Below the pieces are notes generated by a model. The model saw only the letters and a list, made by a program, of their open reading frames with translations. It had not been told where the DNA came from and searched no databases. A program made the position numbers and the translations under genes. Shown piece after piece: positions 1-51,515 of a stretch of DNA of 64,000 bases (position 1 is the stretch's first letter; each line of letters begins with the position of its first letter). Source of the stretch: Candidatus Omnitrophota bacterium (GTDB lineage: Bacteria > Omnitrophota > Gorgyraeia > Zapsychrales > JAKLDJ01); contig JAKLDJ010000001.1 in NCBI GenBank assembly GCA_022703585.1, positions 374,891-438,890 of the forward strand, written 5' to 3'.

Positions 1-3000
1 AGAATAAATGTGGCTTGAAACAAAGTGGTGAGTGAGCAAAGCGAGTCGAACCACAGCGGCAGGATTGACGGCAAGCAGGCGCGCTTTGGATGTTTTAACC
101 GCGGCCACCGATTGCGCAACCGGAGCCGCCATAACACTGCCGGGCCTGGCGCCTTCGAAACCATTCTGCAATACTTGTTCATTTTTTCCGACCTCATCCG
201 CGTAAGCGGTACCGGCGCCAAACAGGTTATTCAGCGCACCCAGAATCATATGAACCGGCATCATCAGAGGCGCGATCGGATTGAAGCCCTTGAACTGGTT
301 CGGAACCTGCGGTGCGACCGGTAATTTCGGCGCGGGAATAGTCGTTGCCGGCGGCAGGCTATTAACTGGGACTGTCCCCGCCTCAGCCCTGTTGGACCTC
401 GTCGAGGCCGGGCCCGATTTAGCTTGGGACCTGTCCCGTACCGAGCTTCGTACCATTGAAATCATTTTAGCCAGAGCCAAAGAGGCGATGATTAAAGGAA
501 GAATGCCCGGCATGGAGGCTTGCAGATTGCTATGGTCAGCCACGGCGGCAACAGTCTTATATTCCTGCATGCGAATCTTAAGGCCGGGTAATTCCTGCGT
601 CAAGGCAATGACTTCATTGAGGACTAAGCGGGTCGCATCGACATTGCTGGCGTACCAATGAGCGTTGGTGTTTTGCCCGCGGGAAATACAGGCGAGCATT
701 TTTTCATAAGAAATCTTGTCAGCGCTGCCGTTAAGACATTCTCTGATGGCATCGTTGACATCTGTGTCTTGCCCGATATGGTAAATACCAAACGCCAACC
801 GCCAGATATCCGCGTCACTCATCCTTGAACCAATCATCTTGGATATTCTGTCGTGGATATCCTTAAGAAGCATGATCGCTACCGTTGTATTGTCTTCGGC
901 GTTAAACGGGTTACGGCTTCCCTCGAGAGATCCGAAGAATTTCTCAAAATTCCTTCCCTTAACCTGGCTTACTCCCATATCCCAGCCTGTCGATTTGCCC
1001 AAGCCTTTTCTTTCAAGAGTGAAATATCTGTTTGAATTAATGGTAATGCGGCTCTGGTCGGGTGTTTCCATCATCCAGATAGCGATGATGCCCTCGGACG
1101 GAATACCGTGGGCGCGGGCAAGGTCGGCAAACCGAACAAAGGAAAGCGTGCGGCGGGCCGCAGCCTTATCCTGGGCGGTCAAGACATAATAGAGAGTCGG
1201 ATTTTTGCGTTCCCTGTCCGTCATGCCGCGCTTAAGAGCAATCCTGGCTTGCCCAAGCGCCTGTGCCGTATTGGCATCGGAACGGCGCATCAGCTGTGCG
1301 TAGAAAACCTCCAGCCTGTCAATGGTGCCGGCATAAATCAACGTCTCTAAAAGATCGCTGATCCGTTCAGGATGATTGGCCAGATTAGCTGTAAACCTTT
1401 CTTGATCTTTCGCAACCTCGGGCCTAAGATTCCACCCGGCTACCAATTCCTCCTTCTTGCCCCGAGGCAGAAGTGTCGATAAAACCGCAATCATCGTCGA
1501 GAATGTCCGGGTGTTATTGAGTGACCCGCTGAATGAATCCAGGCGATACGCGGCCTCGGTAAGCCGGGCTTTGAAATCTGCCATGGCCTGCTCGGCCTTT
1601 TCGGCTTCTTTCCGAATCCTACTGGCTTCTTCGATTTCAACAACCTTCTTGGCAATGCCATAAACTCCGGAGCCGGCGACCGCTAATCCGGCAGCTCCTT
1701 TGACCATGAGGCTTAAGAATTCCCTGCGGGTTTGCTCTCTTTGTCCTCTGCGTACCGCCATAGCGCGAATTTGGCGTGGCGCGGATTTGCGGCGGCTGTC
1801 GACAATAATCTTGGTGATACCGGCAACGGCTGCGGCTGCGCCGATAATGCCGGTGACTAAAGCGGTCTTTTCCACCGCGATCGGATCCATATACATCGCC
1901 CCGGCAGCAGCAACGACCGGCACGGCAACCAAAGGCCACGTCTTCTTTAATGATGAAATCTGAACGGGCTTGCGGTCACGGATGTGTTTATTAAAGAAGC
2001 GAACGATGTCATAGCTCATGAATCCGAGTGCCATGACAGTAAAGGCTACCGGCGCCAAGAGGCTGAAACCGTACACGGCCTCGCCTTCGGCGAGTTTCAT
2101 CGGACGGAGGATTTGTGTAAGAGAGCGAGGCGTCGGTAATTCCACCAAATCTTCCCTGGTTCTGTTGGCAACAGCCATAAACGTCGGGTCTTTTTTCTCA
2201 AAAAGTTCAACCAGGGCAAGATAAATCGGGAGTTCGAAAACGCTGCTTTCCATAAGGCGGAGATATTGTCTCTGGATAACAAAGGTCCTGCAGGCTTCGG
2301 CTGATATGGAAGAACCGTTTCTTACCCGTTCCCTTAATTCTCTGTGATAAGGCCTCAAGGTATCAAGAATCCCGTCAAAGCCGTCCGCCAAGCGCATAAC
2401 CGACGAGACCAGCCTGAAGGATTCTGCCGGTTTAGGGGCGTGCATACTTAAGATTACCTCCTGGGCCCCTTCGGGTAAGGCAATGCCCGATACGCGCAAA
2501 AGATCAATGCTGATCTGGCCATGTTCACGGGCGCGCTCGGTGTCTACTTTCGATAAGACCTGATCATTGCCATGGACGGGATCCCCTTCCTTCCAATAGC
2601 GGCGCCTGTCACTGAATACAGTAATAAGCTCTTCATCCAACTTGCCCAGATCGTGGCTAAGGCCGACAAAGTCTGCCAAAGCAATCTGGGCTGCGCCGGC
2701 ACAAAGTTGTTTATTCTTAAGAATCTCCCTGGCGAGAAGAGTTACGGCCATCTCGTGCTCAATAACCTGCAAGGTATAGTCAACCGAATGTAAGCTTGAA
2801 TAAAAACCTGTTTTGGAAACAGGAGCCCAGAATAAAGGCGACATATTAATAACCCGGCCTAAAGAAGTTCTTAAGAGAGTTCTGTTGGCATTTTCCCTGC
2901 CTCCCCACAGCTCGTTAAAGGCCATGATAAAGAACCGCGTTCTTTCCCGGTTGGGATTTCTAAATAAATCGAGAATAAACTTGGTATTGGTTATGAGAGC

Positions 3001-39000: not shown

Positions 39001-42000
39001 AGTCATGGTTCTGCCTTTACTCATGACATCATTGAATCTCTGGCTGAACAAACCGGTCAATTCTGTATTTTCTCCTGAAGGGCTGACAACGCCCGCATCC
39101 AGAGACAGCCTATCCGGCCCCACCAAAGGAACTGCCGAACCGTCCTGGTTTTTTAACATGAGCGTTTCCCTAAAGATTCCCAAGTGTGCCTGGTCAGCCT
39201 CGGAAAGATCTTCAGGAAGGTTAATGATAGTTTGGCCCGGGTCAATGAAGCTCTGCGCTCCCGCAATCTTATCGGTGGCGTTGCCGTCTTTGTCAATTAA
39301 TCCCTCTTTTTTCGCCTGGGCCATTGAAAGCATCTTTGTTTCGCCGTCAGCATAGGTTACCGTAACCTTATCCGTGTCATGCGGCATGCTCATCCTGATG
39401 GTATTAAGATTCCTTCCGTTTTTAAGAAATCTGGGATTGGCCAAATGCCAGGTCTTATTACCGTTGTGAAAATCCTGTTCGTAAGCAAAAACGATGTTCT
39501 TTGACGGGCCTATCCGCCCGGGTTTTGCTTTGCCGTCGGCATCGATCAGACCTTGTTCCCGGGCAAAGGCTTCAGCAACTCTAACGCTGGACCCGTCCTG
39601 ATAGGTGACGTTGACATTGCCAAGCATCGCGATGCTGCGCACGCCTTGAGCAGCGTAGATAATTTCTCCGGCATCATTGCTCTGGGCGGCGATTTTGCCG
39701 TTTGCGTCAATGTATCCTTTGTCTTTTGCCTCGTCCCATGACATCGTTTGTTTAGTGCCATCGTTGAGAACAACCTCAAAAACATTACGCGGGTCCACGG
39801 TAATGTCCCTGATGCCCTTGCTCTCTATCCTCGCCATACGCCGAGGGGTAAAGCCTGTCCATTCGGCAATTCCAAGAACAACCGCGGATTTCTTGTAGGC
39901 CAAACGCTCCTGAAATTCCCTTTTGCCTTCGGGACTATCAAGGGCGATTCCCTTATCTGTTATGGCTTTTTCTATGGCGGCTACGTTGCTGTCTTTATTC
40001 GCGACCAAAGAACCGATCCCGTACATGGCCGGCGTAAAGAAGGTAGCCTCGAGAAACGCGGTAGCGTTATTGATGGTCCCGGCGTTTAAACTGGAGAAGA
40101 AATACTGGAGCTGATTAGCGGCGGGATTAATACCTGAGAGTATCTGGCGATTGTAGCTTTCTTTAAGTTCTTCGTCGTTCAGCCGCTCATCGCTGGGCTT
40201 TTCGTTGTTGATCTCTTTCATGTCTTCCCATAGCGCTTTTGAGCGGATAACAAATTCCGGGGTAATCCCGCTCATCTCTGCCAAGTGAGCTGTATAGCTG
40301 TTAAAGTCATTGATTCCCGACCGGCCGCCGATTCCCGGAGTGCCGTATTGTCCGAATTTGTTAGGGGCTGTGCCGCCGACAGTATAATAATTGTAAGCCG
40401 CAAGCTGAATCCGGTTGGTCGAAACGCTGATGACAGTTCCCCAAAATCCCGTATCGCTTGCCAGAGTTGTATCAGCCTGCTTTTCTGTCTTTTCTTTATC
40501 GTCAGCAACACCGCTAAAATCCTGGCTGGGGAATATAAATTTGTCGACAAGTGCCGTTCCCAATCCTGTCGCAAGAGACGTAGTAAGAAGGGCAAGGGTG
40601 CGCATCTCCATCGGCGATAGGCCGGTTTTATTTCTCGTTCCGTTATTCCAGGCCCCTTTCATGTTATGCTGTTCTATGGAATCAAGGAGCGCGCCTACCC
40701 CGGCAGGAAGAGCGCTCATAAGTACGGCGGAAGTAATTCGCTTAAAATTCCCCCAGAACCCTGTTCGGGTATCCGCTTCGTCTAACTGCAAGTCTTTCGA
40801 ATCTCCCTTACCGATGGTGTACCGGGCCGCTAACGACCCCAAAGAGCTTCCGACCTGGCCTCCTATCTGACTTAATCCTAAAGAGAAATTGCTCTGCGGA
40901 TTAATATTGTATTTCTCATAAAGCCATTGACGCATATAGGCACTGGCGATACTGCCGGTCAAGTTTGGAATTGAAGTCACCAGCGTTTGTTTCATCGCGT
41001 CGCCAAGACCGTAAGGCGTAAATTCGTTAGTTAAGTCATCGCGCTCACCCATGTTAAACGTTTCCCGGTAATCCGTACCCAATTTACTATCGCTAAGAAC
41101 AACCAAGGGCGTCATGACGATATTCGTCCCAAAGGAAGACACGGCACCAACAACAGAATTCCGCACCATGGGATTCTTTATCTTCTTGAATATTCCCCAT
41201 TTCTCGACCCACTGGGCCATTTTAAGCTTGATATATCCCGTGGCAAGTCCGAGGCCAAGACCTGCACCAAGACCCTTAAAGAAAGTTGCTGTGGCGCTCT
41301 GATTGGCAAGTGCATTCTGTGCAGGGGTCAAAGATTCCCCGGCAGCCTGTGCGGATCTCGCCGCCGAACGCGCCTCCATTTTTCCCCCCACATACATAGT
41401 CGCCACGCTTAGAGCCGTGCTGACAATAAAAGCGGTGCTCGGGTCCCACCCCCATTTCATGACCCCCACCTGGGACAAGGTGCCGTAGAAATTTGAGGCG
41501 GCCGAATAGACATTCATCATGCCCATAGTCCCGCCCGTCGCCAGATTAAAGGCTGTCTGTACACCTGCGCCGATCAAAAGGTCTTGGGTAGATGTGATCC
41601 CCGGCAGCTGATCGGAGCGGCTGATCCATTGCGAACCCCAGACAAAGGCCATCATCGAATCCGTCACCGCCATGGTCCGGATGGCATCATCAATGCCGGG
41701 GGCCAGGACAAAGCCGCTTAATTCTTCGGCAAATTTTTCTTTTGGTGTTGACAGCGCCCGGCCGATATCGGTGTAGTAGACATTGTCATCGTCCATGCCG
41801 GTAACGGTGACAAAATGTTCGGATTTAAAATTGGCGATAAAAGGTGTTTTAAGTTTGAGGATTTCTTCCGGAGAAAGCTTGAGCGTGGTAAAGTCCAGCC
41901 CGTAACTTTTGACCACTTTGTTGATGGCATACAGCGATGTCTTTAACTTCGGTTCTCCGGGCTGGATAATATTGCTTAAAATGTCCACCAGCAAAGTCGC

Positions 42001-42558
42001 GACCGAAATCTCTTCTAAGGTCACATCAATGTCGCGGGCCATTAATAAATCTTTAAGCGCGTAGATACCGCAGTTTAACGGATGGATGTTGGGATCCCGC
42101 AACCAGGAATAAATTTTCCGGATGCGGCTTGAGGTAAAGAAAATGTCGGAATTGATCAGAATGCTTTTTTCGTCTAATTCGGTATCAAGCGGTGAAGAGG
42201 CGCGGTTGAGTTTGAGATTGATTTGCGGATTTTCTTTGTAGGCGATCTGCCTTAAGAAACTTTCAACATTTTCGGCTATTCTTGCCGAAGACATTTCGGA
42301 GGCAGTGGCACTGGGGCTGACATAATGCGCGCCTTGATCGCCCCAGAGAACCAAGGGATTATAATTAACCGCCCAGCTGACCTGGTCGGGAACAAAAACA
42401 AGGACTATAATCAGGGCCACGGTTCTGATCCAGCTTTTAAAGCTGCTCTTAAACTCGGGCTCAGAATTAATCTCGGGCTGGAGCTCGGGTTTTATATCAG
42501 ACCCTAATCCTTTTGGAGAATCTAAATTAATATTGTCTTTTTCTTTATTTATGTCCAT
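1..42558 (-). CDS. Giant multidomain protein, at least 14,186 aa within the window. The 5' end (ATG at 42558) is inside the window; the 3' end lies beyond the window start, so the CDS is partial.
   Basis: Start ATG at 42558..42556 (revcomp of cat) preceded by GGCGAGAGGCGAGGTAGA (GAGG-type RBS). Every 60-nt printed line is 20 in-frame codons. Hand translation of about 15 separate stretches (42558-40621, 39241-39720, 32281, 29401-29760, 17461-17880, 13081-13740, 12241, 5221-6960, 3541-4860, 2461-2820, 601-1200, line 1) shows no TAA/TAG/TGA and consistently protein-like sequence. No minus-strand frame-0 ORF is listed in the track anywhere in 1..42558, which is expected if the frame has no stop and runs off the window. 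The antisense strand carries dozens of 60-220 aa ORFs, typical of a stop-depleted antisense of a real gene. N-terminus verified as MDINKEKDNINLDSPKGLGSDIKPELQPEINSEPEFKSSFKSWIRTVALIIVLVFVPDQVSWAVNYNPLVLWGDQ... Confidence 0.85.
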   Translation of the reverse strand, partial: MDINKEKDNINLDSPKGLGSDIKPELQPEINSEPEFKSSFKSWIRTVALIIVLVFVPDQVSWAVNYNPLVLWGDQGAHYVSPSATASEMSSARIAENVESFLRQIAYKENPQINLKLNRASSPLDTELDEKSILINSDIFFTSSRIRKIYSWLRDPNIHPLNCGIYALKDLLMARDIDVTLEEISVATLLVDILSNIIQPGEPKLKTSLYAINKVVKSYGLDFTTLKLSPEEILKLKTPFIANFKSEHFVTVTGMDDDNVYYTDIGRALSTPKEKFAEELSGFVLAPGIDDAIRTMAVTDSMMAFVWGSQWISRSDQLPGITSTQDLLIGAGVQTAFNLATGGTMGMMNVYSAASNFYGTLSQVGVMKWGWDPSTAFIVSTALSVATMYVGGKMEARSAARSAQAAGESLTPAQNALANQSATATFFKGLGAGLGLGLATGYIKLKMAQWVEKWGIFKKIKNPMVRNSVVGAVSSFGTNIVMTPLVVLSDSKLGTDYRETFNMGERDDLTNEFTPYGLGDAMKQTLVTSIPNLTGSIASAYMRQWLYEKYNINPQSNFSLGLSQIGGQVGSSLGSLAARYTIGKGDSKDLQLDEADTRTGFWGNFKRITSAVLMSALPAGVGALLDSIEQHNMKGAWNNGTRNKTGLSPMEMRTLALLTTSLATGLGTALVDKFIFPSQDFSGVADDKEKTEKQADTTLASDTGFWGTVISVSTNRIQLAAYNYYTVGGTAPNKFGQYGTPGIGGRSGINDFNSYTAHLAEMSGITPEFVIRSKALWEDMKEINNEKPSDERLNDEELKESYNRQILSGINPAANQLQYFFSSLNAGTINNATAFLEATFFTPAMYGIGSLVANKDSNVAAIEKAITDKGIALDSPEGKREFQERLAYKKSAVVLGIAEWTGFTPRRMARIESKGIRDITVDPRNVFEVVLNDGTKQTMSWDEAKDKGYIDANGKIAAQSNDAGEIIYAAQGVRSIAMLGNVNVTYQDGSSVRVAEAFAREQGLIDADGKAKPGRIGPSKNIVFAYEQDFHNGNKTWHLANPRFLKNGRNLNTIRMSMPHDTDKVTVTYADGETKMLSMAQAKKEGLIDKDGNATDKIAGAQSFIDPGQTIINLPEDLSEADQAHLGIFRETLMLKNQDGSAVPLVGPDRLSLDAGVVSPSGENTELTGLFSQRFNDVMSKGRTMTVAGGFENEKSPLMARFSYKKSPETDSKTRNPLTDSKGNITHWQWNSQVKFKNGVAQNISGQHGRNETTDEFIADKFISTYRVTGETIVSNGEIAIFNDLSLSKVAEKGKSDSYQGNAELMRFLKVAKGEGSAVANVQAALDQDVANLTGKTEEAVEWNLANVGGVGLVFLPAKVRRTVGASLTPEQEAEVTKHALGSDRAVDLTNELISGLANVPGGSENVNLGWQVVAQAMDVNAKGKLLAKDATPTTLFYRQGWKSRGATTVWDVEYFGTPTNDSRQTVMVNGDRTAFGASIWRIADGVDAMGTLVKGSTALNQEQQAQMDALQAQGLQEAYEAYESSGGYSKAGLMAALAAYAPTQAALDSSKSYLAMAALGGAGNKRGSLYSEFRQGDKTKSAQGVVDGGYTATDVNSGNEYTFLLYGRGQFIQYEKGEAVNRNISSAPSMPPAGGNASTATTNASTALASNTMASSASEPGASSQTTANAITNAAAQSNANVGTGMTTETSLESPNPETGDTNISSTTPGIAPVAGYSAGGEQAGKTKEELQARETQTQNAIRIFGEKKAKEVIGRDGTVADRTLLFGSLANPSGAEIFTAEESIQGKTPRLIIRDFKVFEDKGTFRYNGLGYAPNDTGRGIQDAIAVVDDQGISYYPKGDGSKPMSVNWRAFEAMVRAAELTKEQARIINESMAKESGSEGPASEHQPYGEVSPLPGGESFIGPLFLEGENSPTEVPSLSGGSTYIASVRLDGFTQSDIVRGDGKPIDLYDSSTEIENPKAANSRGELHYVPNSAKEYSVDANGQEVPGSLRMLSTEKVDKLAWDQNGPVVRLAGISRFPLDVITQDADQNAPASAAGENKNPQVSGVVTISGAPTYRMNLATGQAQPWFFAKADGTQDKSEEKPIFDQQGNLIDTGEVEAAGEQYAPYSVDLLSAVGTGVASMNPITDNTRYYYSGDKQSPQLTLVNTPTRSLGIFANGGVDYIRGQGMYVHDGTDSQLTLNKDSIPFHRFGYFLDGKQQYVYKYTNPHFVDTSKTQIVVAPDGTESIQVINQEKTLTIVATKGLFQDRTSNYSDLNLNGATAEVRATATGANGAIDVYAGEFIPAADGSFAKSHIAAGTKPDGTDSRDLVNVLPGNSGGEKMPVEPPSETAVVNPPPVGSGINPDQWAVASFGESAKREILDRQLGPNAPQNERDALDRIKGELRDGKRESRGVYALGVPVSDGKGGTVMVLNGTFNAAGGGPDSYYELGRGADGGENADGRFDPASGNTIPLNSDYGDNSGQIRIGLYRTDSDAAQLTSAGVWVDDQGRRKLFGLDVIRGMAWRNNATGAGRSFLDGGFGIADNAGLLQPQMQPEVIVTAERPEIPFAVAQPSSLSVNPALLRTGITTASALSEPVDFDVEIGPGAYEAARNHATWTHGEIGTPLSFSGTVEFTQDFEFNGVVPSRLNPGEQPFFVHGGTILTGDRNNRDTASTQGGYGEGWTSKDGRLAFIFSEGAVNLPSSYRTLGAVYHKTHVATGSEIGPADNTAGQEDSDSDFTPQVTRVNKGDVSAKRIRVTLGNGSTTALTWYGFNPAAKQHQFVSTLGDAKTTVFGTGVQDAGQAIREEGGLIFFRPDSNGQFAVMPTTPEAKEFLDGVKAKMSEYVRVRSADGAEGYVPKEHWADRTEEQEAPQGYFDRALFAAGKFNMGKPDGGRGDNDVMLQEVGEDGKSNGLWRRVDKSQFLGTIRLGGEEKNILTKLGKAVAPGLAKIGLGPQGDLAFSADVYSGGDIAIEDQSGQKVSSGLFDGIDGSYRSGDYFALGFNGGRDTGIVLDQDVIHKGLGFLAREETDSYGNVVGFGGPLRYDSFIKNEAIMAKFSGRMENFSGTVDAISLIPVFKLVGFGVKEGVKLGVSAAVKAGAKAAGTEAAEAVAKTAAVEGTEVAAREAAQVAARAAAKTAEAELAATAAQQLNANQRITLAAAKALARVNAAEVPGASFTRAAVKTSVFSLAAGNAISLGVTGKPLSFEDNIRAVTSSLGILTLGRMASLPMNTANLYAKGFMGSMKGIRPHLIGLGGAIVVGSVGGGIAEKIKSRTAGPGGVNLRPDYSAAFLKGAIKAAAVYTGFMFGLRPIFASSLSVKQAFGSVGVSAISLGVFQAANELGDPTNERTWGHALSRGKGGAIAGAEISAGLLAFRGITKLNTDPNPKNPHFVGKYLDQMTNNVANQKTFTTVRNVAGRWTAGGAAAWAYGSYKEKKLISPFSAEGGLLLVSGIALSAILLGKGSVKGYLAGGVKNLGEMKPFTLTSSMASGAIGFAEAGLIWEGSKLGFNGIKNLLTGNLPQYEGDDLLRRKAEFFVGQTVLGSIAGGFESGPFLGPVLGVTMPQAIAPAGRLAAGEKGILGWASLLGRGVKKGIDKKREGQGFFSFSPADLIGKTAKTGEYISFVHRTFGKQIAKADSLAAFLGLNDLLTAAEYKVLSRSYAAKQGIEVEDIPEAMANQLKTKAGDRALWRSVLLLPNAGGMGGVEKRIDSRPDSGNSGDRLRTDIDSPTTGGDPTARADRIEALTKTSLARAGQRAQAGDLAAAGHNLARAAGLALAGEQALRAIPTPAPSPSAERVTPAEGAIPQEASSLGSSETRAPPSAEIAERISALRKVRLQATNLIDNVNTLLSETARPQESLAAERVSLTQDLEAAQHTLGSVESALATNAAELARAQKISTSADQTLSRRQAVADRASARAADATTRNQGTHQAVRAETRAADALAKSDRAAQDAYADMALTGARVTGEQSVLEAQRARLLGDIATAQQGLRAIDGVRSREHYQQAAADARAQTLALAEATVSELSQPAASPSAEVARRSTLITANNILERINTSLSETARPQESLAAERVSLTQDLEAAQHTLGSVETALATNAAELARTQRASTSADQTLSRRQAVADRASARAADATTRNQGTHQAVRAETRAADALAKSDQAAQDAYADMALTQARVTGEQPVLESQKARLLGDIATAQQGLRALDGVRSREHYQQAAADARAQALQLAEATVRDAEAGRLPSTLEAYRHLSESADLLSPTARPQESLDAERASLTQDLQAGQDTLGSVESALATNAAELARTQRISTSADQTLSRRQAVADRASVRATDAATRNQGTHQAVRAETRAADALAKSDRAAQDAYADMALTQARVTGEQSVLEAQRARLLGDIATAQQGLRALDGVRSREAYQGLAEQARAQALELAKATVAEAGNLPSTRDAQRRLAEAADYLSQVARPQESLDAERASLTQDLQAGQDTLGSVESALATNAAELARTQKASTSADQTLSRRQAVAARASARATDATTRNQGTHQAVRAETRAADALAKSDRAAQDAYADMALTQARVTGEQPILESHQGRLLGDIATAQEGLNGLEGVRSRENLQGLTQSALAEMSRMARESYQRAEKEGATEAPAMSTVRASESSPVSRPAMQIVDSQTGDVLFNLPGVEAPAVSELAKPAARPAAEVPAASDLARPADTMAIGTELSRPAETVEFSTPTTRELGLLRSAFQEHIPAKDLSHIDFIIKGVVKNKPNATPGEIVRIVSGMLGDQILNNFLLPDAQFLHQYVAALQRGESISLQNAVPLVAKAGSAETVAPELAQPTLTAQDHFRLGESQRAAGELSSASQSFRTAQRLATEMGDSSLANRSRDQRMEILSQRRASRAVTPALAEVSGVSEAPATPVLAEPVTPAAAPEAPAPAPLQLVKSPKPAPAQTRDFVSRAMDKLRSSAASKAATIALTIGLTSSALLMSDTNLRANSRGPEQLSSRPTTEFVVQSPDTGKALASETPAAPMISPEQTELYARTLDQFENSRSQKQQELSKLNPDNLPYDAWLDPATNPQGVIRGSLTFQEGFKARIFADALREIGLQRVSNNGGTQVIAGAINDQPFRFYFHTLERKEGLPEGGIYRAAGEDSINIIGYSGHSASDALQDPSVALAPSETNEKVCFNFACFTDAFRSDMFEKWGTDVQYVSVNRPGDTYLNAEYFKQAVVGMSRHENWAQIGARADRNMPSDYARYVISPADGGVSVDLNRNMWIDRVERNISRSAIEQLSLLLPDSSGASYDATLSNRTLYLDYKVKTALGWDKELDQYKDSTWFAGWFKSPNPDEHVRVARDGKDLYFAINADHRGDLSNELIMATLYHLGEKIGELEGKDSDYGKALGLRMAFDHANSFLGGSFDAFRAKNNIPAGITEDMIETARKWNSPGARQEAMRTIASNFKADAATRKTAQPTEAIAATPAQKPASAVVEAVTLASSPLPATVQDTPKAPAAPAPLPGSPLSDASLPVLTGLLGLGIFLGAKNRNRGLSGEGDSRLAKPATRSTTESPMAKPKVRRNSGDVTLYSGVPLDAETLGELGRTVAGAARGLRELGRKASDRVSERIRERRSEDRLARVDSKARPVIGSDGPSAAKVAELMTSGGEDLSVQGAGFHPDIPKFLKKGYGSPDAKDIGQKEGLQLLTRAIERARSTTRVLANIAKGGSKSTLGVALVGKQAVSEGGMAFVIDNAGAIDRSMPEIKKMLEGEAVVERWNSDLTEADKLDLIARTDVLMLTAKQAEAFRLSESDAIWDALYAKSKGIAWQYDAEFKPYQVPMQRGGNQQEIASPKGVYEAAELAWTARKEGKIIYGEDGTASASPQLVDQVLGKLGVETEARARGEKQAEFARFVSAVEEAAKPTGHLQGDRVLTTDLDGAASPAVVMADPYKAAVQDAITRIIARENGIRVSRQGPIFVGTSVDRVRVEDFWSKFSERGFTTRRIDATGNDLSDLSGQAELALRGGELLVPESRMAGIREVPGFDVGRDTALRSRDGKAISLNSGFQETASEMAVGGRAVFVDAAGREGHTALEVQDAARRYAVSKGTDMVVLGALEGPSGSERFILRDPSKPVTESNKRPLTQEEFDLGMQNPDTKWTVLLSQPRAMGDTVDMLGLKTHPKDTLIVITNEFTRGKLASQALIRGRAPIREQGAKADYAHPELIPRKIIALDVVNFSDPAKYIEHMEGPVQRSFDRTATAQATFEYGQRQGIMRQERWEADAATDAERGALQQIRDKIAQSNHALRHSSLAEPAKEAKKTIESAIEETVNSANRVIREHFRMHPEQLRELSPRTRAEVESIMRGEQDIRITLTAESGDLSKGISVQEAQTPKEFEQAVNARLSKDMVPTYSPGFREGQMLVERVVTAEVVKPVVAADQGLVASRAPPKVIVTTAINGANGPEIKSYRSENPFFVVIPGTLPSSELQNPGAGIQLGPNQMFVPSNGSVPLGLIPQFGFIYNKDNDKNPVAIAVPLQEGGFVTAAIKDNSRFSLQGSVAIVTHENDSQISIPVREVYSVDTTAGTHSLLHREIGELPQGIQEQDLLGVKTGDRITEHGYVVSIADVGNADPAKVKAVHYAGTLVPVDSATHQFTAPFLTGFSDDIKIVEQTYQITDATKEVGDPVQYTIEGRGDLLKGLGLPGGSASQEIVSVTVGREAFAKAMEIPSRRFDEIFSRIVENGIIRQEVNTTGRSVKATTDIKAGQTGFEELQAAKADLEMAYRVADALEGLDDQESVQLRQEALEAARIIQMQIDPANKGGHIFFLSELDQDAILERTEALLRRNLVSEQAMQSLSAQDRQEKLTPVELARFMYQMEAEDTLMGAHAGGAGKNLDNIYITRTAANAKTHFEAVGQPLLAQASYEARMASAILHEAISRANTKRTHSENVRIERDMRTILASLPAVQLVPVDRDTDLRQAARERIQKRYDRNVFIAKKGFTDVQTEQGPIQREINIFSRVSLDDSGNVKLEELKGEDVKTILSGGVVLFGKGDLLPSDENARRIAEVARVDVETFALPSAPAIGQANIPAETSNLGGALPAPMQQSFPGSVPFVPGLLLPPMARGNLGQDVPGQMKEQALRADQTRRDLYALEQEAPLADSVPSLAGDGLLESGGLLKGESRLPGGDLAASAALAGDIALKADRTNQREPANKKYGGDEWLRASLDRVDGDLRVLAAEADVSYSTAVDWVRNLRNNGGDPTGKYAALVATASKARQQEVGLKGDRYPGDSIMSGLIASTRASTAEIAKARGVSETAARRYIKRYIDGDPRQRQAEFDRARGQLHKPSFDYPGHYKMAQWIKQGDGIQTQIAKNQGVSQSTISKYFEVFNEDANRRLFLKQVRTEADFKKRTGQPLNSALTSYLVDHPDTPTLKELEAALKVPPDILKTYLRDRKFVSGVLYALLLKKGEIKVSELRRKSTGTGLLSSAIKDHGLSNVFAFTHKKFHPYILDYFGIYDPRGPAIALSQAQVKTRVRDYLKALHPDRVKHALEPQLKKAGLSEDEIWRIANAQFMAIRNNGDLLLNHWTWWTRAGFAPSSAVMSRPAVARIARAVLSRRNTPQSGMLLGSGPIESAAAAPAVKVMEAAAGSKMVRTSEMAKPVSVQAMATAPMAELKLQEVSDTNLTADNNRDVALKADRSPIPSTTKVAGTSLLAQAEPQQHLAVNIESLLNGGARIRRDVLLLTSEQLARLEPGTTIVSIDGKTAVVGRDKISLDTRYNALAYGFPLENIKSIRPLPMPGQPAQARPVTDDRIRELQGMLSDSGDDNSYDADFTQTMQELWTISLTNPGLTPQVATALIESAKNNAGYRTSRALVDFSKVNPEFTEQAITTLDEIARDNPHNIYTPDALVAMVRGNPKITDRIISALESQIAINKHAAGALARTITDMPPYFTKQVYSMLKKNIDWPGVLQALAWMATVVPDYADETKSILKQEAVKGNMEAAEALVGALPKKKGKPQAFVMTARDMTPQFTKQLYSVLKSHIDQPAAPWALVQITNELDKPGVAQALARIATAVLKNHVNKPGVSKALAWIAATVPDYAAETKSVLEQEVLKGNMDAAGILAAFDMPAFRMENLSLPVIEKLASHGRHYSPRAAWQFILKAPSMAEPSPRAARIRAAQKEISNLIAQFENLAKEDGRRTDKKMVRDLREKIALPIFELAGKPVSEQSFPKMVTNYYRVPDLNIIRTVALRGNAGQELVKNRLLHRLGKVDDTRPLAVVVYPKSDHNNALLNPTNATALTKHYRVLYYEASTPDEMVSALKDATNLEDPARYQPASLVVIAGHGTRGSIQFGPKETDVLTMPVVLKKLQRAGLSRVLTADGKVMLDSCSTGAQRWYGGKNMADALARIFQRPVTAPNKPTSSRMTVNTNTGRPLAEINYTRAEKYVALPSGNNDSLVDRVRWMLSGILAQRMPVPAFTEASDNLSSRIAMTSKRQALEANPTIDNSRGDVALPANKETGDGQSSWLHLSINGTRIDIRPSDLIGLIVARQNRFGQLEDFQPMLDKVGLDHAVISQGLEKAAVDVVRYKIETVKEGYQVTKQGPVFTYLDEGGALAAFAIDRAVPGNSSYLADPDYDIVVKIPHEDLNFYSKKILAPELARGYDIIKNRLGPELTGAIVLEDVSLMIRGGHVPRKIHQYPFVFVQQKVETFANFRDRMNQEREAALAKSTTEKERAAVNRNYDKAIEDFQNDIISLRAEMARRGVIDLDVVNVARNYGRTIGPNSRVVVIDMDYLAYGEDAVHNLKKAVENYPHRVPIIVSKKVAAPADLSAEWRKGWQSRIVDMQADRSWPEFIQPELQVQLNEPYVDSIHKYWATTLQEFEAAWKSQDSTALNNSQRAVPPFYVEVTRAQEKYLAELIRESAKLGMDLPFGTDTPANGQGDISLKANRIKEEIPLTQSSQVTIGAPTVSNLSAVAQPSQPEPLSDIRAGSAMPPLPELKSGSVAVPQAPNALPETQILPPSIMTAPMPPALAVPPIASLNGTKPRWVNTAMPKPRLGIDNVPLLAFADTDNGMRQSRFDFPQSPIDSPYNTPSQKRKEAPAPTAPGPVSMPVSPQPTGNDGSSSGSSKAPVSVVAYQQGIGASSADIVKAPQIAFNNQQGFKNEILLKVKDGSKLTSGIHDNSTKPSGTLAVSQTGLNKSARQKAMDLVVRVFGSASTFTAMVANIAKALARRSESSEADFIGNVLAGNGLQKNSRRQSADKVQGARGLRLVIEGQAVEISGSARPVIGNDGEDSLVVRSFDILAANGSLSRTLPVTGLPKAGNALVVCDVLLRDTAKATEVNEEPATEPATSKPRSAEDVRNAVEETRNFKAEENSFAVESAHTNSAEIARRASLSLVTPVTPSNLPENNINSQDLSVIISKGRASNRNLRLGSFTQSAESRRASPVVDVRASDNLFNNGDLAYVGNPSSNASVQVSATTLYSFPGMLFDKDLWKGLFGNRGSARGRIPSPAVDVRASKYTRGNDVALTATRTDAERDSVRPFGYQSVIHEAAQQLVTYKEQYALRCLGEAVAYAAFSDVTPKQALAQFLTNNNIPESEKKSISAIIGKIVSDDTQETLVKFMRDARANMEDSERPLELQSKQIEATGMVFANFGGVVIEWPTGRGKTFVSTAGRASFQLMEALENRPFKSKSLILAPDITNMPRAAVYDAYLRTVSAVKLADGKPAVRVGIVLDDFSVWTYADGVAEMSLKEAEETAKQAGSYKALLREVKMADLTQDFDIVVMPQQTFLNIAKGHNEEAAAVSADTNETQAVAAAAVQSPEKIKGSKDYLSAFKPSVNDGKNRIIWDDAHIAVTEPGLIDSIRIDPERQLTDANFKSGWNLMRLFREVIKEVELRRSDLDSTHRPSPIVWGQATHPNGTTIPREAVNEQVKKEIMAHLQKLVPGLNLKEEKWIREEFEEAVDVAIMSLLDKETRDIYRTFEFPDTNGETVTGIIVHVIEKNEKVPYIMDAETGYREALSGSSHRMETEKGIRYFTSNSDSDVLVRFEGGTTGSDKVFILNEKDLVKFNYRLAQEGDSRPTHIHGSAVKAALTALKSGAGNIEAMKHYFSLRGDMTDIFSIKRFLVGKDAPTPLVLMTATPVRGPLEVLGFTNANYLQLDRVDMDSKLRMAKYIRVSAGNILEASIQGITQALRESKSVKVNKPNEVFEEWPVRVTVLVTQSGDDVYKAVARLTELKRKGAFAGDDVRIEGVEGSIGDAKTKKMDELGKVIRSEYADSSKDSRKHLIVVVNKLNDGTNLLALATDAAKAYAARIVRIGSKHTAVADVQLIGRAGDRTKKIFDDFRAPAEDMMAYIDEARIGPAERGLLVRVDIQREELKKQFPAGSSQLKSELEKLSEVEQDLFRQFAKNRGIIEDFEASLRAARQMAGVKDTSRITDVRASHTPSDMEMEQINHTYNQRFGALANLPSETKNQAAEDVARQGQIRGAPAAAIDEVSEVASSLIEAPQAIRDVLSTLPQDSDIAAFVNTLFDANKNGLFRNYNSKKPSREQSEFIDTVKNFVLAAKYGFVGTDAFGRVIELSEKGRKLSDTFKAYKAENRTSAQGQSDLVALNSAIDTVIREHRAEVIGNVADEAGLGSALDSQWNEDLLNIYLKSDGRSWRDREAVLEALNSYIARYQVAKPEGDEHSAAVVNAAKLLRTNVEDEKQKREDTEHRTVALVRKAAVSNAVKFLVKHPNFGGFLASLVLLPIAHSESISSSVIDARYNRNKVIKTLAYIYTPLNKSFNTMSPWLTELRAHKNPLKKMFSSLKTHPFHGYLLWNLTKNQMPQRAEKIDLTFKQLAEMGKAILGDKGRKENTLNGMALAGMLSNQDFERAGKAYDLLENSVPAAKQEKVLGNWTLRKFFTLMSNDYENKKGPEEGILAARGLWRLTLSAVHHVKGGWLKDRSDLGIYRGTLEYWMAKQARGLRKKGNSDGRITIALFNYSADKNSPLWKIVKKFKKEVKKDLVQEKGQSKESYQLEVERQARARAEKALKPYLFGFDYDEKANQAFKELQQRADKRDEKFDLGPITAQNLRDGNIPVDIEKENKRKERKWKSITDLASSRELEDIEEEFTPAERTRLGKMLQKKDGLERLWNALKDPAQYGQDEFLQRLRKIWIGVPDADLAGRFKATKEEKAILRAVHKGSLEREEASSDLIESAQRAAMALNRPDIALFLEGVSKSQTLGVYVVSCEKGDKRFSGKTSAFGQQGIYIFAEKDAQGQEPVALTRLNQRAKSLVDQTKRLGSADNAQYARNAAGLEADVLKNQHIDEANIMLALPGVNDTLNDGAKSRILSLMVGERTQGLEETVKHYRAVARDMLKAVKPKMDAVDASFVQKGISLVREFSRQVLPFMQDKEGRSIEGWQQYEAVTKSSSMHLGAVPEPGEGLKRITSQDGSMVVDYAGPDLTDEEKAQILKTRQARHVVEQTKRFVDMTPSLGQKKSYSEQIRGLARALNTLKDAAEIFGLDRISAIADMSQARSEVTDAMVRQGERQFFEGLGKILEKDDEDGLANKMIKQLKNPAVIVPFVRNHIVRDLEEFIAFRQAKERSIESQQAFLEHSSLRWMADKVRVLSNEELFAVKEALAEKKVSDSLLTLVANLSGISRNSERAMPPLKLTRAMIERHFDNVRDGRSEAGRILWSEFNESDINQVLAQFDSSMAGYTVSRVELDVLSLSLKERVQKFQNALKAKGYLPESYKVKGKMDITTQAAYEKFAADETAEDREYIEDLHTSATIKQAHISQGPSLVYLRAPDEQDGYLAAVVLSEHGQLLGKEKEDGTVDFYGFPNKEEFFAAFKNGGNVIFSVNGSYAGSLLVRDRNVAQRMQGTVSSNAKRLDLKAALDINKEKTDGTVEKRTIKSDMGEVSGIKFFKGMHLNHEQLKSWFNLSDWQASRAHNPGKPVRVTKWNLAVPNLSVAVFLLMKGSFMAHLTYGVLGYFGQKMGVTSKTHGATQMGNALLGMGLWGFAKTGTGVAALGSIAKSIGVSSVVIAGAEISAVTVMVMAITASLGIALSVASHLLKQYASDSMIANIDKFTLYGESAFKTHDLFRLPKRISSNRTQIRGSLTMIVPLAGSAYFFSAGATLPGIIAAAMLPVIAIFINHEPRHSIEAARFGKVTSKMEFTAMGGLATIKGLSELTPAKAFWVAGVGPIGDTFLMGPTWFTIGLMQSGFGLLPAVAGVAGFYSLMYATHRLTAKSSALRVMSYFVPAVYLAAVLATGNLSIVGNHLPAAAHDGSVFQLWDYISKNLVHASSLGQINNAMKDISGIRELLGNLNFFTQLGTLTVMLGFFNGLPIHPMDGGRMLQAFLEPTDYSGLGSKLWRIGFAGAMFAVPSAIFLGAGGMIPPVFGSAFVINVAIYTFPQFIASVVNAFKENSLETTQTIGLVGGGLFVLAAVSSQNLMVGIMGVSLALQNLTQIMGVKPHNREGLHSGLPSLDLRKIREDRGVVAEQTPAPAPAEPKSIPVNVPANGVPPVAPTPNGGKGLPMHFAPATNMPVLYQPIFTLGEARTGVRVIYRTAGNSTGIHGNSTSAGPSSHKGVGVDNESATAVSNPTRTIPGFISFISGVKPRLNAVSSFNGIHNIPTQNDYNQKPKQSPANLQSKFAEISSRRIVGTDHGGALWTLDHQTPVTRHQSPVTGQTTNTLHSITLLNLAETIASLAPAAKRLLAKLGSSLSSITTGKFTPAMGKKTPGKLSMPMTQKLFASLPATPALSGIKLGETSSLNSFVPFVFAFGMAQDADSVIAQLGWERNVAKDAVKLMATMNIAEGDTVVFVGGRYFMEPMIAAAAFGARVISIDPIYENCDNPAMARSHSAELVPAQYISLVEGIEFISERLGELSGATKALLAGAGTIKGIVALNVIDDVYPDLAVEILYDALELISDRGSIALSVGLPRYEWKIDDAREALELLAHKIGGWRVEKIAENLQTGKTYYNRATVFQVIKNLVDAGPSMPLAGIAIARRMSDVEINIARYEERYRAMMSDFNEEPFSLNPVSQALVERQRNMTVAEAVEIYVKAVKEYGVSQDKGRYEGRDPVMLFGEPKAWCDIYGNKVAGSAGMAELLKESGRDERIKEAVLQSGIITIALNFLQERIKSGELTADESRKLFNQAADNLNAFNLVALPFAALMGLFTLAAQARVEEAGESSGHWAQLSLSEFNAARERVLWAVRHIGATYPVRQGNTRTALITNTKFILDLFRNPNRERTRFFIMAFNELWGGRENANRTLLRTSLGRVINMSPLFWAPVSKTGFYSSLHSVDYTLQVIEHEMAVTLLAREILKNKQLCAGAAQIALADFVGLSHDLGKLDEELITVFSDRRRYWKEGDPVHGNDQVLSKVDTERAREHGQISIDLLRVSGIALPEGAQEVILSMHAPKPAESFRLVSSVMRLADGFDGILDTLRPYHRELRERVRNGSSISAEACRTFVIQRQYLRLMESSVFELPIYLALVELFEKKDPTFMAVANRTREDLVELPTPRSLTQILRPMKLAEGEAVYGFSLLAPVAFTVMALGFMSYDIVRFFNKHIRDRKPVQISSLKKTWPLVAVPVVAAAGAMYMDPIAVEKTALVTGIIGAAAAVAGITKIIVDSRRKSAPRQIRAMAVRRGQREQTRREFLSLMVKGAAGLAVAGSGVYGIAKKVVEIEEASRIRKEAEKAEQAMADFKARLTEAAYRLDSFSGSLNNTRTFSTMIAVLSTLLPRGKKEELVAGWNLRPEVAKDQERFTANLANHPERISDLLETLIYAGTIDRLEVFYAQLMRRSDANTAQALGQARIALKRGMTDRERKNPTLYYVLTAQDKAAARRTLSFVRFADLARAHGIPSEGIIAIWMMETPDQSRITINSNRYFTLERKGLGKSTGWDMGVSQVKGRNFEKFFGSLEGSRNPFNAEDNTTVAIMLLKDIHDRISKMIGSRMSDADIWRLAFGIYHIGQDTDVNDAIRECLNGSADKISYEKMLACISRGQNTNAHWYASNVDATRLVLNEVIALTQELPGLKIRMQEYKTVAAVADHSNLQASMPGILPLIIASLALAKMISMVRSSVRDRSQAKSGPASTRSNRAEAGTVPVNSLPPATTIPAPKLPVAPQVPNQFKGFNPIAPLMMPVHMILGALNNLFGAGTAYADEVGKNEQVLQNGFEGARPGSVMAAPVAQSVAAVKTSKARLLAVNPAAVVRLALLTHHFVSSHIYS
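28750..31050 (-). repeat. Four tandem in-frame coding repeats, unit 582/588/615 nt (194-205 codons), about 90% nt identity, inside the giant CDS.
   Basis: Anchor string cgccggtaacacgggc recurs at 28905, 29487, 30075 and 30690. Flanking strings (ttgggttaaagccatgtcggcataggcatcctgggc..., ctaattcagcggcattggttgctaaggcagattcaacactgcctaaggtat) recur with the same spacing. Spacings are multiples of 3. One verified unit translates to ...TLGSVESALATNAAELARTQRISTSADQTLSRRQAVADRASVRATDAATRNQGTHQAVRAETRAADALAKSDRAAQDAYADMALTQARVTGEQSVLEAQRARLLGDIATAQQGLRALDGV... (Ala/Gln/Arg/Leu-rich, predicted helical or coiled-coil). Confidence 0.85.
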
Positions 42559-42720
42559 TCTACCTCGCCTCTCGCCTATTAATGTCCAGACTGGAAATTA
42601 AATTAATAGGTACGACGACTGCAGCAGAATTAAAGTAAATGTTTGTTTTTTGATTTAACCGACGGACGGAACGATAAAGGCCTTTGCAGGAAGGCCGGCT
42701 GAATTCGTGGGAATTTGAGG

Positions 42721-42750
42721 CATAAAAAATCCCCTGTAATTGCGCAGGGG
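42721..42750 (-). terminator. Second hairpin plus U-tract (minus strand) in the leader of the giant gene; possible attenuator.
   Basis: cccctg (42731-42736) and cagggg (42745-42750) form a 6-bp stem with an 8-nt loop. On the minus strand this is followed by AUUUUUUAUG (revcomp of cataaaaaat, 42721-42730). It lies 165-190 nt upstream of the giant-gene ATG. Confidence 0.3.
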
Positions 42751-42798
42751 ACAACCGAAAAAAGATAATAAAAAGCCTATTAATCAAAGACTCTATAA

Positions 42799-42960
42799 TC
42801 CGTGGCTTTTGAGTTCTTGTTTGCACTGTCCTTTTCTCCGTGGCTTTTGCTGCTTTTTGATACTCGAAAAAAAGATAGGCTGCCGAATCCTCGACGGTTT
42901 CGGCAGCCCGAACTACATCACTTAAAAAAACAAATGTTTTTTAAGTTTTCCGTGGCTTTG
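42799..42960. promoter_or_regulatory. Three direct copies of TCCGTGGCTTT(T)G in the intergenic leader upstream of the giant gene; candidate transcription-factor sites.
   Basis: tccgtggcttttg at 42799-42811 and 42837-42849, and tccgtggctttg at 42949-42960. A related copy ccccgtggctta lies at 54189-54200, upstream of the flp pilin array. Confidence 0.3.
42865..42908 (-). terminator. Intrinsic-terminator-like hairpin plus U-tract on the minus strand, between tadC and the giant gene.
   Basis: ggctgccgaa (42878-42887) pairs perfectly with ttcggcagcc (42899-42908) around an 11-nt loop. On the minus strand the stem is followed by UAUCUUUUUUUCG (revcomp of cgaaaaaaagata, 42865-42877). Confidence 0.5.
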
Positions 42961-43721
42961 CTCACTTCGTAATCTTTCTTTTGGAAGTTCGCCTTTATCG
43001 TTCCGTCTGCAATTTAAATATATCATATAGTATATGGTTGTCAAGCCGGCAGCACCGGCCTAAAACACCCAATCATCAAGCACATCAATGACTTACGTAA
43101 TTGGCGAAAGAATTTTAAATTTTTTTAGAAAATTTTTCCAAAGCCGCTTTCTTTGCGGAGATTTTTGCCTTTTTTATACGGCATGCCGATTGGATTTGAT
43201 CATGATTTCCGCATTCGTCACCATGGGAAATACGGCGTTTTTTAAGAAAGCGATCGCCTCAAAATGACCCGATAAGATATTTTTCCGTCGGAAGCAATGT
43301 TATTTCCGTCGGAGAATGTAAGAAATCTTCTTGGGCCAATCAAATGAGAGAAAGAAAAAAGACGGACAGAAGGCCGGCTCCGCAACTCTTGAATTTAAAA
43401 TGCACGGCTTGAACGCCCTCACGCGCGCATCAAAAAACATGCATCAAGAGAATAAAAACGGAAAAATATACACAGAGCCTGGAGGAAAATATGCCCGGCC
43501 CCGGAAGAGTTTATTTCTTGCGGATTTTCGGGTAGAGAGATATTTAAGAAGATGGGCTTTAGAAATCAGCTGAAACTATTGAAGATTATGCCTTGGTTTC
43601 TTTCTTTGGACATTTCTATACGAATTTTTTATAAATTGGACATTATAATTCGGGATTTCCTGTTGAATTTAGCACAGAAAATGTCCATACTAAAGCAGTT
43701 ACCGATTGGCGCCTAAATGTT

Positions 43722-45642: not shown

Positions 45643-46047
45643 TTAGTTACATTGTGGATTTGCACAAGGGGTCACGCAATACTCGTTACAATGCTCCTCG
45701 CAGCAGTCGGCATTATGTCCGCACGCCGTGTTGGGGTTAGGGCTATGACTGCCGCAAGGATTCCAATTATTATGATCCATGCAATTATGTGCGCATTGAT
45801 CGGAATAGTTCGTATGGCATTGGGGGACATACCACCTTCCCAGGTCTTCGCTCCAGATGCATTCAACCGTTTTTTTAGGGTCGTATTGCATCCCGAAACC
45901 GAAGGAATCGGCTGACGCCTTCCAGCGCCCGGCAAAACCGCGCAGGACATACTGCCGTCCGGCGACAAAAGCCGCGATCAGAATAACGATAAGCATCGTG
46001 TATTCGATCATGGAAGCGGCTCTTTTATTACCTTTACGCATCGTCAT
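45643..46047 (-). CDS. Flp-like pilin paralog with a Cys/His-rich C-terminal extension (12 Cys in the last roughly 60 aa).
   Basis: N-terminus MTMRKGNKRAASMIEYTMLIVILIAAFVAGRQYVLRGFAGRWKASADSFG parallels the xxxxEY plus hydrophobic helix plus RGIQGRWK pattern of the flp array genes. C-terminus ...CHTNYSDQCAHNCMDHNNWNPCGSHSPNPNTACGHNADCCEEHCNEYCVTPCANPQCN. The start overlaps the stop of the upstream TadG-like gene (TAATG), indicating translational coupling. Confidence 0.55.
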   Translation of the reverse strand: MTMRKGNKRAASMIEYTMLIVILIAAFVAGRQYVLRGFAGRWKASADSFGFGMQYDPKKTVECIWSEDLGRWYVPQCHTNYSDQCAHNCMDHNNWNPCGSHSPNPNTACGHNADCCEEHCNEYCVTPCANPQCN

Positions 46048-49298: not shown

Positions 49299-49361
49299 TC
49301 TTTCTCCTTGAATCTTGTTACGTCAAATTTGCCCTAACCCTTTATTTTAAAAACCTTAAAC

Positions 49362-51494: not shown

Positions 51495-51515
51495 TCCTAT
51501 CCCTCTTAAGTTTCT

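Follow-up and report, generated by a model that had tools for sequence, protein, structure and literature searches.

Giant genes of the Omnitrophota have been defined by size, either as open reading frames (ORFs) of >20 kb (Seymour et al., 2023; PMC10066038) or as ORFs of >90 kb, i.e., 30,000 amino acids (aa) (West-Roberts et al., 2023; bioRxiv 10.1101/2023.11.21.568195). West-Roberts et al. reported a longest ORF of 257,412 bp, from a wastewater Omnitrophota genome, and described full-length giant genes as having an N-terminal C39 (or S8) peptidase domain near a signal peptide, many transmembrane (TM) helices and, in most cases, divergent SecA_DEAD or SecA preprotein-binding domains. According to the same study, a conserved locus is found upstream of these genes; it has >10 genes and resembles type II secretion system (T2SS) and type IV (T4) machinery (gspD/E/F, rcpC, a Rotamase_2 peptidyl-prolyl isomerase (PPIase), and class III signal genes); pilZ and solute-binding or glycosyl hydrolase genes follow (Seymour et al., 2023; West-Roberts et al., 2023). 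Seymour et al. listed Tad loci and giant ORFs among the signs of symbiosis and noted that giant ORFs are poorly conserved and contain few domains. Nielsen and Lui (2026; bioRxiv 10.64898/2026.06.07.730766) found that a C39-only architecture forms the largest architecture cluster among 916 long proteins, that secretion or pilus genes flank 13 of the 14 largest giants, and that 80% of the sequence clusters are singletons. For Velamenicoccus archaeovorus, peptides of a 39,678-aa protein reportedly increased 3-fold when the cells were attached to larger ones (Kizina et al., 2022, as relayed in PMC10066038). Here we describe a stretch of 64,000 nucleotides (nt) of Omnitrophota DNA, referred to as the window (contig JAKLDJ010000001.1 of assembly GCA_022703585.1, positions 374,891 to 438,890), in which the start of a giant gene lies behind a Tad pilus locus. 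We show that the window almost certainly carries the first 16.5% of the longest ORF of West-Roberts et al. (2023), and compare its head, its predicted modules and its gene neighborhood with those of related loci.

Identity and extent of the giant gene

An exact-sequence look-up of the CpaE-CpaF fusion and of TadB from the window returned 17-18 public contigs. Five of these loci (L086-L090) show 0 mismatches to window positions 34740-55597 in 20,858 nt; they derive from JGI 3300009771, Logan SRR5007146 (a US wastewater run), ENA ERZ761563, ENA ERZ27257456, and NCBI GCA_035453785.1. The earlier note on this DNA, made from the letters alone, had listed chimerism or collapse of the assembly as a possible objection; the base-for-base identity over 20.9 kb among five samples or assemblies speaks against it. 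On a 1.17-Mb ENA contig and on a 1.61-Mb contig of GCA_035453785.1, the ORF that starts at window position 42558 encodes 85,803 aa (gene tables; loci L088 and L090), and on a 308-kb contig of a third assembly the giant product comprises at least 77,848 aa before it is cut by the contig end. A product of 85,803 codons plus a stop corresponds to 257,412 bp, exactly the published length, and is found on contigs identical to the window; the window, therefore, almost certainly holds the start of that published gene. With 42,558 nt in the window and 85,803 aa on the identical contigs, the ORF exceeds the published size limits, and its C39 head, its hydrophobic segments and its preceding locus agree with the published description. 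We are highly confident of this identity and of the class of the gene, an Omnitrophota-type giant gene, which the earlier note had already suspected from the architecture. The source is an uncultured Omnitrophota bacterium of wastewater and digester metagenomes. The gene is already known, both in the literature and in public assemblies, and the window adds no new object.

The coding evidence within the window is equally clear. Translation of the reverse complement gives a minus-strand frame that begins with the ATG at 42558 and stays open down to base 1 (1..42558), i.e., 14,186 codons with zero stops, exactly as the earlier note had read it. It had also noticed that this frame is missing from the accompanying ORF track, which is because the ORF listing omits frames that run off the source end. 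The closest upstream in-frame stop is at 42598-42600, and the ATG is preceded by a purine-rich, Shine-Dalgarno-like sequence (GAGGCGAGG). At the 50% G+C of the window, the probability that 14,186 codons contain no stop by chance is ~1e-296, and the longest opening in any other frame is at most 1,091 codons. Codon-position G+C and codon usage are uniform over the giant ORF, with a correlation of relative synonymous codon usage (RSCU) between its two halves of r = 0.84; the correlation with the upstream Tad genes is r = 0.78. The window edge cuts the gene, whose 3' end lies ~215 kb past the edge.

Conserved head of the giant protein

The giant product begins with a predicted signal-anchor helix followed by a C39 peptidase with an intact predicted triad. 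The hydrophobic anchor helix, recognized in a Kyte-Doolittle scan (aa 43-62, WIRTVALIIVLVFVPDQVSW; 42373..42432, minus strand), has a Lys and an Arg on its N-terminal side and is kept in 14 out of 14 aligned homologues. Together with the C39 domain (aa ~152-290) it makes up a conserved head of aa 33-330 (41569..42462, minus strand). The C39 assignment, also made in the earlier note, holds: PF03412 scores 35.7 bits against a cut-off of 22, and the catalytic candidates C163, H248, and D264 are invariant in 14 sequences (alignments A1 and A2). The head also weakly matches the peptidase domain of an NHLP bacteriocin exporter.

For the first ~330 aa, 13 protein homologues with 33-54% identity were found, almost all labelled Omnitrophota and most of them partial. 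All head homologues come from Omnitrophota genomes, with some records labelled differently, e.g., as ‘uncultured Planctomycetales’ or Elusimicrobia. A pattern scan of one genome per species of the Genome Taxonomy Database (GTDB) yielded 80 Omnitrophota loci with the head (best identity 57%), which together with one ENA locus form our comparison set of 81 loci; the source species itself has no genome among the GTDB representatives. In 73 of the 81, the ORF that starts with the C39 head extends past the locus boundary, and in every case in which a locus offers 10 kb it is no shorter than 3,650 aa. Head homologues always stand behind TadB-TadC. Past aa ~430 (at most 850), tblastn and phmmer searches with the whole protein revealed no similarity to the 81 related loci; detectable conservation across the phylum is limited to the first ~330 aa, i.e., the anchor and the C39 domain.

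In the other eight loci (including L001, L016, L045, L059, L063, L075, and L078) the C39-headed ORF ends early, at 116-2,265 aa. In L001 (10001-22907) it ends at 968 aa and is followed by overlapping or closely spaced large ORFs of 1,943, 738, and 2,265 aa. These early-ending ORFs could be truly split versions of the gene or frameshift errors.

The Tad pilus locus and the spacer

The genes between 43.7 and 64 kb all lie on one strand with the giant gene, i.e., the minus strand. Closest to it are TadC (43722-44720) and TadB (44740-45597), inner-membrane platform proteins for which PF00482 (T2SSF) scores 51 and 65 bits for the pair. Beyond these follows a block of pilin and accessory genes (45643..57374), delimited by Pfam matches and by the order conserved across loci. 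It contains o134 (134 aa, 45643-46047), which adjoins TadB and has a Cys-rich C-terminus; o1083 (1,083 aa, 46047-49298), o476 (476 aa, 49685-51115), and o978 (978 aa, 54438-57374), which have no Pfam match; o87, which is TadE-like (87 aa); five paralogous pilin-like proteins of 104-129 aa (51180-53257) with N-termini of the form ...G-Q-S-x-x-E-Y-A-I-L; and two short Flp/class III signal genes (~53300-53729), which carry Flp_Fap and Class_IIIsignal in the gene table of an identical contig. Pfam matches further identify a DUF192 protein (57838-58182), a CpaE-like ParA ATPase fused to a CpaF/TadA ATPase (719 aa, 58192-60351), an RcpA/CpaC secretin with a pilus N-domain and a C-terminal TonB_C domain (60353-62014), RcpC/CpaB (62048-62896), and a SurA-like PPIase of the Rotamase_2 type (62901-63842). 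By its predicted products this block is a Tad (Flp, type IVc) pilus locus. RcpC, the secretin, TadZ/CpaE, TadA/CpaF, TadB, TadC, and the Flp pilins are all present; the sole exception is the TadV/CpaA (A24) prepilin peptidase, which was undetected in the 21-kb Tad block and in the gene tables of the identical contigs.

The position of the giant gene downstream of a Tad operon, as stated in the earlier note, is a recurrent feature of the phylum. The order o476-o87-o1083-o134-TadB-TadC followed by the giant gene recurs in about 66 of the 81 related loci; upstream of the giant gene, TadC was counted in 66 loci, TadB in 62, o134 in 57, and o1083 in 54. The TadB and TadC homologues all come from Omnitrophota genomes. 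Since o1083 and o476 are kept in position in 44-54 related loci, they are probably Tad accessory or pilus-associated proteins of no known family.

The earlier note had placed the giant gene directly behind the operon; in this respect it requires correction, as an AT-rich spacer of 1,163 nt (42559..43721, minus strand; 40% G+C) intervenes. In this spacer, a promoter-like site close to the consensus (TTGACA-16-TATATT) occurs at 43044-43017, and hairpins that resemble terminators occur at ~42912-42870 and 42752-42729. A comparable spacer occurs in 66 related loci, with a median length of 844 nt and 35% G+C, vs. 46% for the locus. No conserved sequence or upstream ORF was found in the spacer across the related loci, and scans for Rfam families and tRNAs gave no match in the window. 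As judged from sequence and gene order, a conserved Tad locus ends with the giant gene, which is located behind a spacer with its own promoter-like site.

Several other features of the neighborhood deserve mention. All credible genes of the window are on the minus strand, and the cumulative GC skew declines steadily over the 64 kb; both fit the published remark that each replichore of such genomes codes nearly all genes on one strand. The TonB_C domain on the pilus secretin (62 bits) is an unusual fusion. The C-terminal half of o134 contains ~14 Cys, vs. 13 in the 14,186 aa of the giant protein. Past window base 64000, just upstream of the PPIase, the source contig (L083-L085, 1-5151) encodes a 1,710-aa multi-PAS response regulator and a 380-aa hybrid histidine kinase, possible regulators of the Tad/giant-gene locus.

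Modules in the body of the giant protein

The body encoded in the window, i.e., within the first 14,186 aa, was examined by profile searches on tiles of 5,000 and 1,000 aa and by motif reading; NCBIfam and PADLOC yielded weak matches only. About 97% of it has no profile match, and the 14,186 aa contain 13 Cys. The N-terminal third, to aa ~3400 (~3,000 aa after the head), is acidic and rich in Gly, Asp, and Thr, a statement on composition only, as it matches no family. The hydrophobic blocks and the tandem repeats of the earlier note are both present in the following form. A Kyte-Doolittle scan reveals ~15 distinct hydrophobic segments, and self-BLASTP and a repeat search delimit Ala/Arg/Gln-rich tandem repeats at aa 3804-4670 (28549..31149, minus strand), comprising ~4.3 copies of ~195-205 aa, with DNA units of 582-615 nt that are 74-92% identical. 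The six enzymatic modules proposed in the earlier note fared differently: C39 and M50 are established, the SF2, HD, and caspase-like modules are recognizable by motifs and by sub-threshold profiles, and the lytic transglycosylase finds no support.

The M50 module (site-2 protease type; aa 12094-12311) is embedded in ~8 hydrophobic segments (aa 11974-12405; 5344..6639, minus strand). PF02163 scores 28.4 bits against a cut-off of 27.2 in the 1,000-aa tile and 25.1 bits in a 4,586-aa tile. The motifs HEPRH (12104-12108) and NGLPIHPMDGG (12293-12303), the latter of the NxxPxxxxDG type, lie inside hydrophobic segments, as expected for the intramembrane metalloprotease that had been proposed. A weak, marginal match to the MJ0392 site-2 protease was the only one in Protein Data Bank (PDB) sequence searches with three 5,000-aa tiles and three module tiles, which were otherwise empty.

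The putative superfamily 2 (SF2)-type ATPase module of ~970 aa (aa 9519-10491; 11086..14004, minus strand) was called a helicase-like P-loop in the earlier note. Its motifs follow each other in the proper order, i.e., I PTGRGKT (9619-9625), II DDAH (9806-9809), III TATP (10096-10099), and VI QLIGRAGD (10286-10293), with a long insert between motifs II and III; the profile match remains sub-threshold (ResIII, E = 0.019, 15.3 bits vs. 22.5). SecA_DEAD (PF07517) is unmatched in the first 14,186 aa, and such a domain may be located in the other 71,617 aa. A PDB profile search (A3) was empty, and an AlphaFold2 model built on a two-sequence alignment was unusable (predicted local distance difference test score (pLDDT) 35.8). 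An exhaustive phmmer search with aa 9300-10499 among 1.84 billion representative proteins gave a single match, P0014, a stand-alone gene of 1,658 aa at 563-5539 on a 5.6-kb metagenome contig (L082; JGI 3300021156). It matches the SF2 module with 33-37% identity and keeps the motifs, motif I reading TGGGKQ.

A helix-turn-helix (HTH) at aa 7251-7284 (20707..20808, minus strand) passes the cut-offs of HTH_23 (27.5 bits vs. 24.6) and HTH_28 (26.9 vs. 25), and a second, weaker HTH lies near aa 7321-7340 (window ~20540-20600, minus strand). The pair weakly resembles the N-terminal regions of transposases of the IS630 (E = 2e-5) and IS481 (E = 5e-5) families.

A possible HD phosphohydrolase module, also listed in the earlier note, is found at aa ~13265-13420 (2299..2766, minus strand). 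Its motifs are SHDLGK (H13302, D13303) and ADGFDGILDTLRPY (13391-13404; pattern ADxFDxxxxxRPY), and profile support is sub-threshold throughout (HDIG, E = 0.05, 13.5 bits vs. 27.6; HD part of the PADLOC Cas3fv profile, E = 0.0015). The caspase-like His/Cys dyad of the earlier note can be located in a candidate clan-CD peptidase at aa 8286-8376 (17431..17703, minus strand): H8298 (VVIAGHG) and C8343 (VMLDSC) are 45 aa apart, each after a hydrophobic strand. The DUF4347 profile matches here at E = 7.9e-5 with 22.9 bits, below its cut-off of 24.6; the tile has no PDB or NCBIfam match, and its AlphaFold2 model is unusable (pLDDT 35.6). For the SLT-like lytic transglycosylase there is no profile match at E <= 1 and no AYNxG motif in the part read; the sole GLMQ falls within the membrane domain of M50, with the sole ES[FWY] 126 aa ahead of it, and this reading was rejected.

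Relatives of the body are scarce. Database searches found no homologues for the tiles aa 11787-14186 and aa 9401-10400. A 44-mer from the window start is absent from JGI metagenome contigs by exact match, and the module patterns have no relatives there. In the first 14,186 aa there are no matches to dockerin or TSP3 profiles and no RTX-like or Ca-binding repeats, and none of the Archaeovorin set (glycosyltransferase, methyltransferase, glycoside hydrolase, NUDIX, HEAT/TPR) at E <= 1.

Proposed function and alternative explanations

It is likely that the ORF is the published giant gene and encodes a membrane protein as the last product of the Tad locus. How such a protein might work, and whether it acts together with the Tad pilus, is more speculative, and the following mechanism is offered tentatively, as one that is possible rather than probable. 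The giant polypeptide would reside in the inner membrane, crossing it multiple times, with very large loops on both sides. The ATP- or metal-dependent modules (SF2, HD, HTH) would face the cytoplasm, and the Gly/Asp/Thr-rich N-terminal third and/or the helical repeats would face outward. Its own peptidases (C39, M50, and possibly clan CD) might trim the giant protein or release parts of it, and the protein and the Tad pilus could together enable the cell to attach to hosts or prey and to exploit them, in line with the proposal made for the 39,678-aa protein of V. archaeovorus.

A number of observations weigh against this view. Searches of the 14,186 aa turned up neither an adhesin nor any envelope-degrading domain such as a glycoside hydrolase or a lytic transglycosylase, and the role in predation is therefore argued from context and from other organisms. 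The earlier note had seen in the locus a signature of contact-dependent predation or epibiosis, based partly on envelope-degrading modules. The giant gene and its Tad context stand, the wall-active modules do not (in the first 14,186 aa), and a role in predation is conjecture. Furthermore, the SF2, HD, and HTH modules, all of a cytoplasmic type, lie in a 6,470-aa stretch between hydrophobic segments that, as far as the Kyte-Doolittle scan shows, may be on either side of the membrane. Self-processing by the C39 peptidase has no sequence support, because the protein contains no double-glycine leader-like sites (0 observed vs. 0.6 expected by chance). The domain analysis covers the first 14,186 aa and ends 71,617 aa (83%) short of the full product. 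Finally, we infer the match to the gene of West-Roberts et al. from exact length, phylum, and habitat, and not from a shared accession.

Rather unlikely, in our view, is that the giant ORF encodes a polyprotein that is translated once and cut by its own proteases into many independent proteins or enzymes, a possibility also raised by West-Roberts et al. (2023). Two, possibly three, unrelated peptidase modules in one chain would suit such a scheme, although the absence of double-glycine leader-like sites counts against it and no cleavage products are known. The occurrence of the ~970-aa SF2 module inside the stand-alone gene P0014 points in the same direction, as does locus L001, where the C39-headed gene ends at 968 aa with large ORFs next to it, and the C39-headed ORF is short in seven further loci. 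Such short versions may, however, be frameshift errors, which have been documented for these genes. The polyprotein is also partly compatible with a membrane protein acting with the Tad pilus and does not exclude it.

Unlikely as well is a membrane-tethered intracellular scaffold, in which a few helices would hold most of the chain at the cytoplasmic side of the membrane, where it would act as a multi-enzyme or regulatory platform and not as an extracellular weapon. All recognizable modules after the head are of cytoplasmic or intramembrane kinds (SF2 ATPase, HD, HTH, M50), and no secreted-type adhesin or carbohydrate-active enzyme domain was found in the first 14,186 aa. Nielsen and Lui (2026) moreover reported that 46% of the long Omnitrophota proteins are TM-only, with the bulk predicted to be cytoplasmic. 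On the other hand, the positive residues before the first helix predict that the C39 domain and the sequence following it are outside, the extreme Cys depletion and the acidic, Gly/Asp/Thr-rich 3,000 aa look like those of an exported protein, and the tight link to the pilus locus points to the envelope.

A more elaborate variant, a self-handling polyprotein coupled to the Tad machinery, is quite improbable. Here the outward-facing C39 head and the M50 and clan-CD-like peptidases would cut the chain, an internal SF2 (SecA-like) motor would help to thread it across the membrane, and lineage-specific fragments would be released or displayed beside the pilus. If true, the head-only conservation in ~80 species behind TadB-TadC would represent an undescribed functional link of a C39-type peptidase with a type IVc pilus.

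Very unlikely is the notion that the head is the functional core, with the C39 peptidase serving the Tad machine by maturing pilins or a secreted substrate and the variable body being accessory. The motive for this proposal is that the locus shows no TadV/CpaA prepilin peptidase (no A24 match in the 21-kb Tad block or in the identical contigs' gene tables), and the proposal would agree with the conservation of only the first ~330 aa across 80 loci, always behind TadB-TadC. However, the usual processing enzymes of Flp prepilins are A24 aspartic peptidases, which cleave behind a single Gly; the pilin-like proteins of the window show ...G-Q-S-x-x-E-Y and no double-glycine leader; and a TadV gene may sit elsewhere in the genome. 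This notion also leaves 85,000 further open codons unexplained.

We reject an artefact as extremely improbable, be it a misassembly (chimeric or collapsed) or non-coding DNA that happens to lack stops. The repeats of ~600 nt, four to five in number with 74-92% identity, could in principle mislead short-read assemblers, and local assembly errors are known in giant genes. However, the contigs are identical (five samples or assemblies over 20.9 kb, with two giving 85,803 aa and a third at least 77,848 aa), codon usage is uniform, a chance opening of this length is practically inconceivable, and the same kind of open frame is found in 73 of the 81 related loci.

The preferred reading, a giant membrane protein that may act with the Tad pilus, concerns a product that, with 85,803 aa, was the longest predicted prokaryotic protein when reported. 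In ultrasmall bacteria, which probably depend on a host and have small genomes, such giant genes account for >10% of the genome. The present comparison sharpens the picture of such genes. Phylum-wide conservation comprises only a ~330-aa anchor and C39 head, always in the gene after TadB-TadC; the predicted modules of the first 14,186 aa are proteases and nucleotide-dependent ones and not wall-degrading ones; and one internal module (SF2) is also found in a separate gene elsewhere. The head-only conservation, the types of module, and the separate SF2 gene all bear on the question whether the product is one protein or a processed polyprotein.

Comparison with known systems

At the level of single domains, the C39 head shares its fold family and its Cys/His/Asp triad with the C39 peptidases of bacteriocin and RTX ABC exporters (PCAT and HlyB-type). 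It differs from them in that there is no ABC transporter, a single anchor helix precedes the domain, the domain is predicted to face outward, and no double-glycine substrate was found in the giant protein. The M50 module likewise has HExxH and NxxPxxxxDG in hydrophobic helices and passes the Pfam cut-off, as do site-2 proteases such as RseP and MJ0392. In contrast to these, 12,000 residues of a giant chain precede it, a search for a PDZ domain gave no match, and the RseP equivalog profile scores 13.9 bits vs. a cut-off of 147. MARTX toxins and TcdA/TcdB are very long secreted polypeptides in which a clan-CD His/Cys protease releases effector modules. The 45-aa His-Cys spacing of the giant protein resembles theirs, and as there is no significant sequence match this is a lead and not a classification.

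Among the giant proteins, that of Velamenicoccus archaeovorus LiM is, according to the account relayed in PMC10066038, likewise the product of an Omnitrophota giant ORF with many TM helices, from a genome with a complete Tad locus. In that account it is the only case with expression data. The giant protein of the window differs in that the Archaeovorin set of domains was not found in its first 14,186 aa. The C39 (PF03412) cluster of Nielsen and Lui (2026) consists of very long, sequence-unique membrane proteins in which C39 is the sole or dominant Pfam domain and which are flanked by Tad/T2SS genes, and in these respects the giant protein of the window agrees with it. Their set stems from different environments (groundwater and the Baltic Sea) and its largest protein, with 147,155 aa, exceeds the 85,803 aa found here. 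The M50, HD, and caspase-like modules are not mentioned by West-Roberts et al. (2023), Seymour et al. (2023), or Nielsen and Lui (2026). From the longest ORF of West-Roberts et al. (2023), nothing testable differs: the length, the phylum, the wastewater habitat, the N-terminal signal or TM segment with its C39 domain, and the upstream T2SS/Tad-like locus are all the same.

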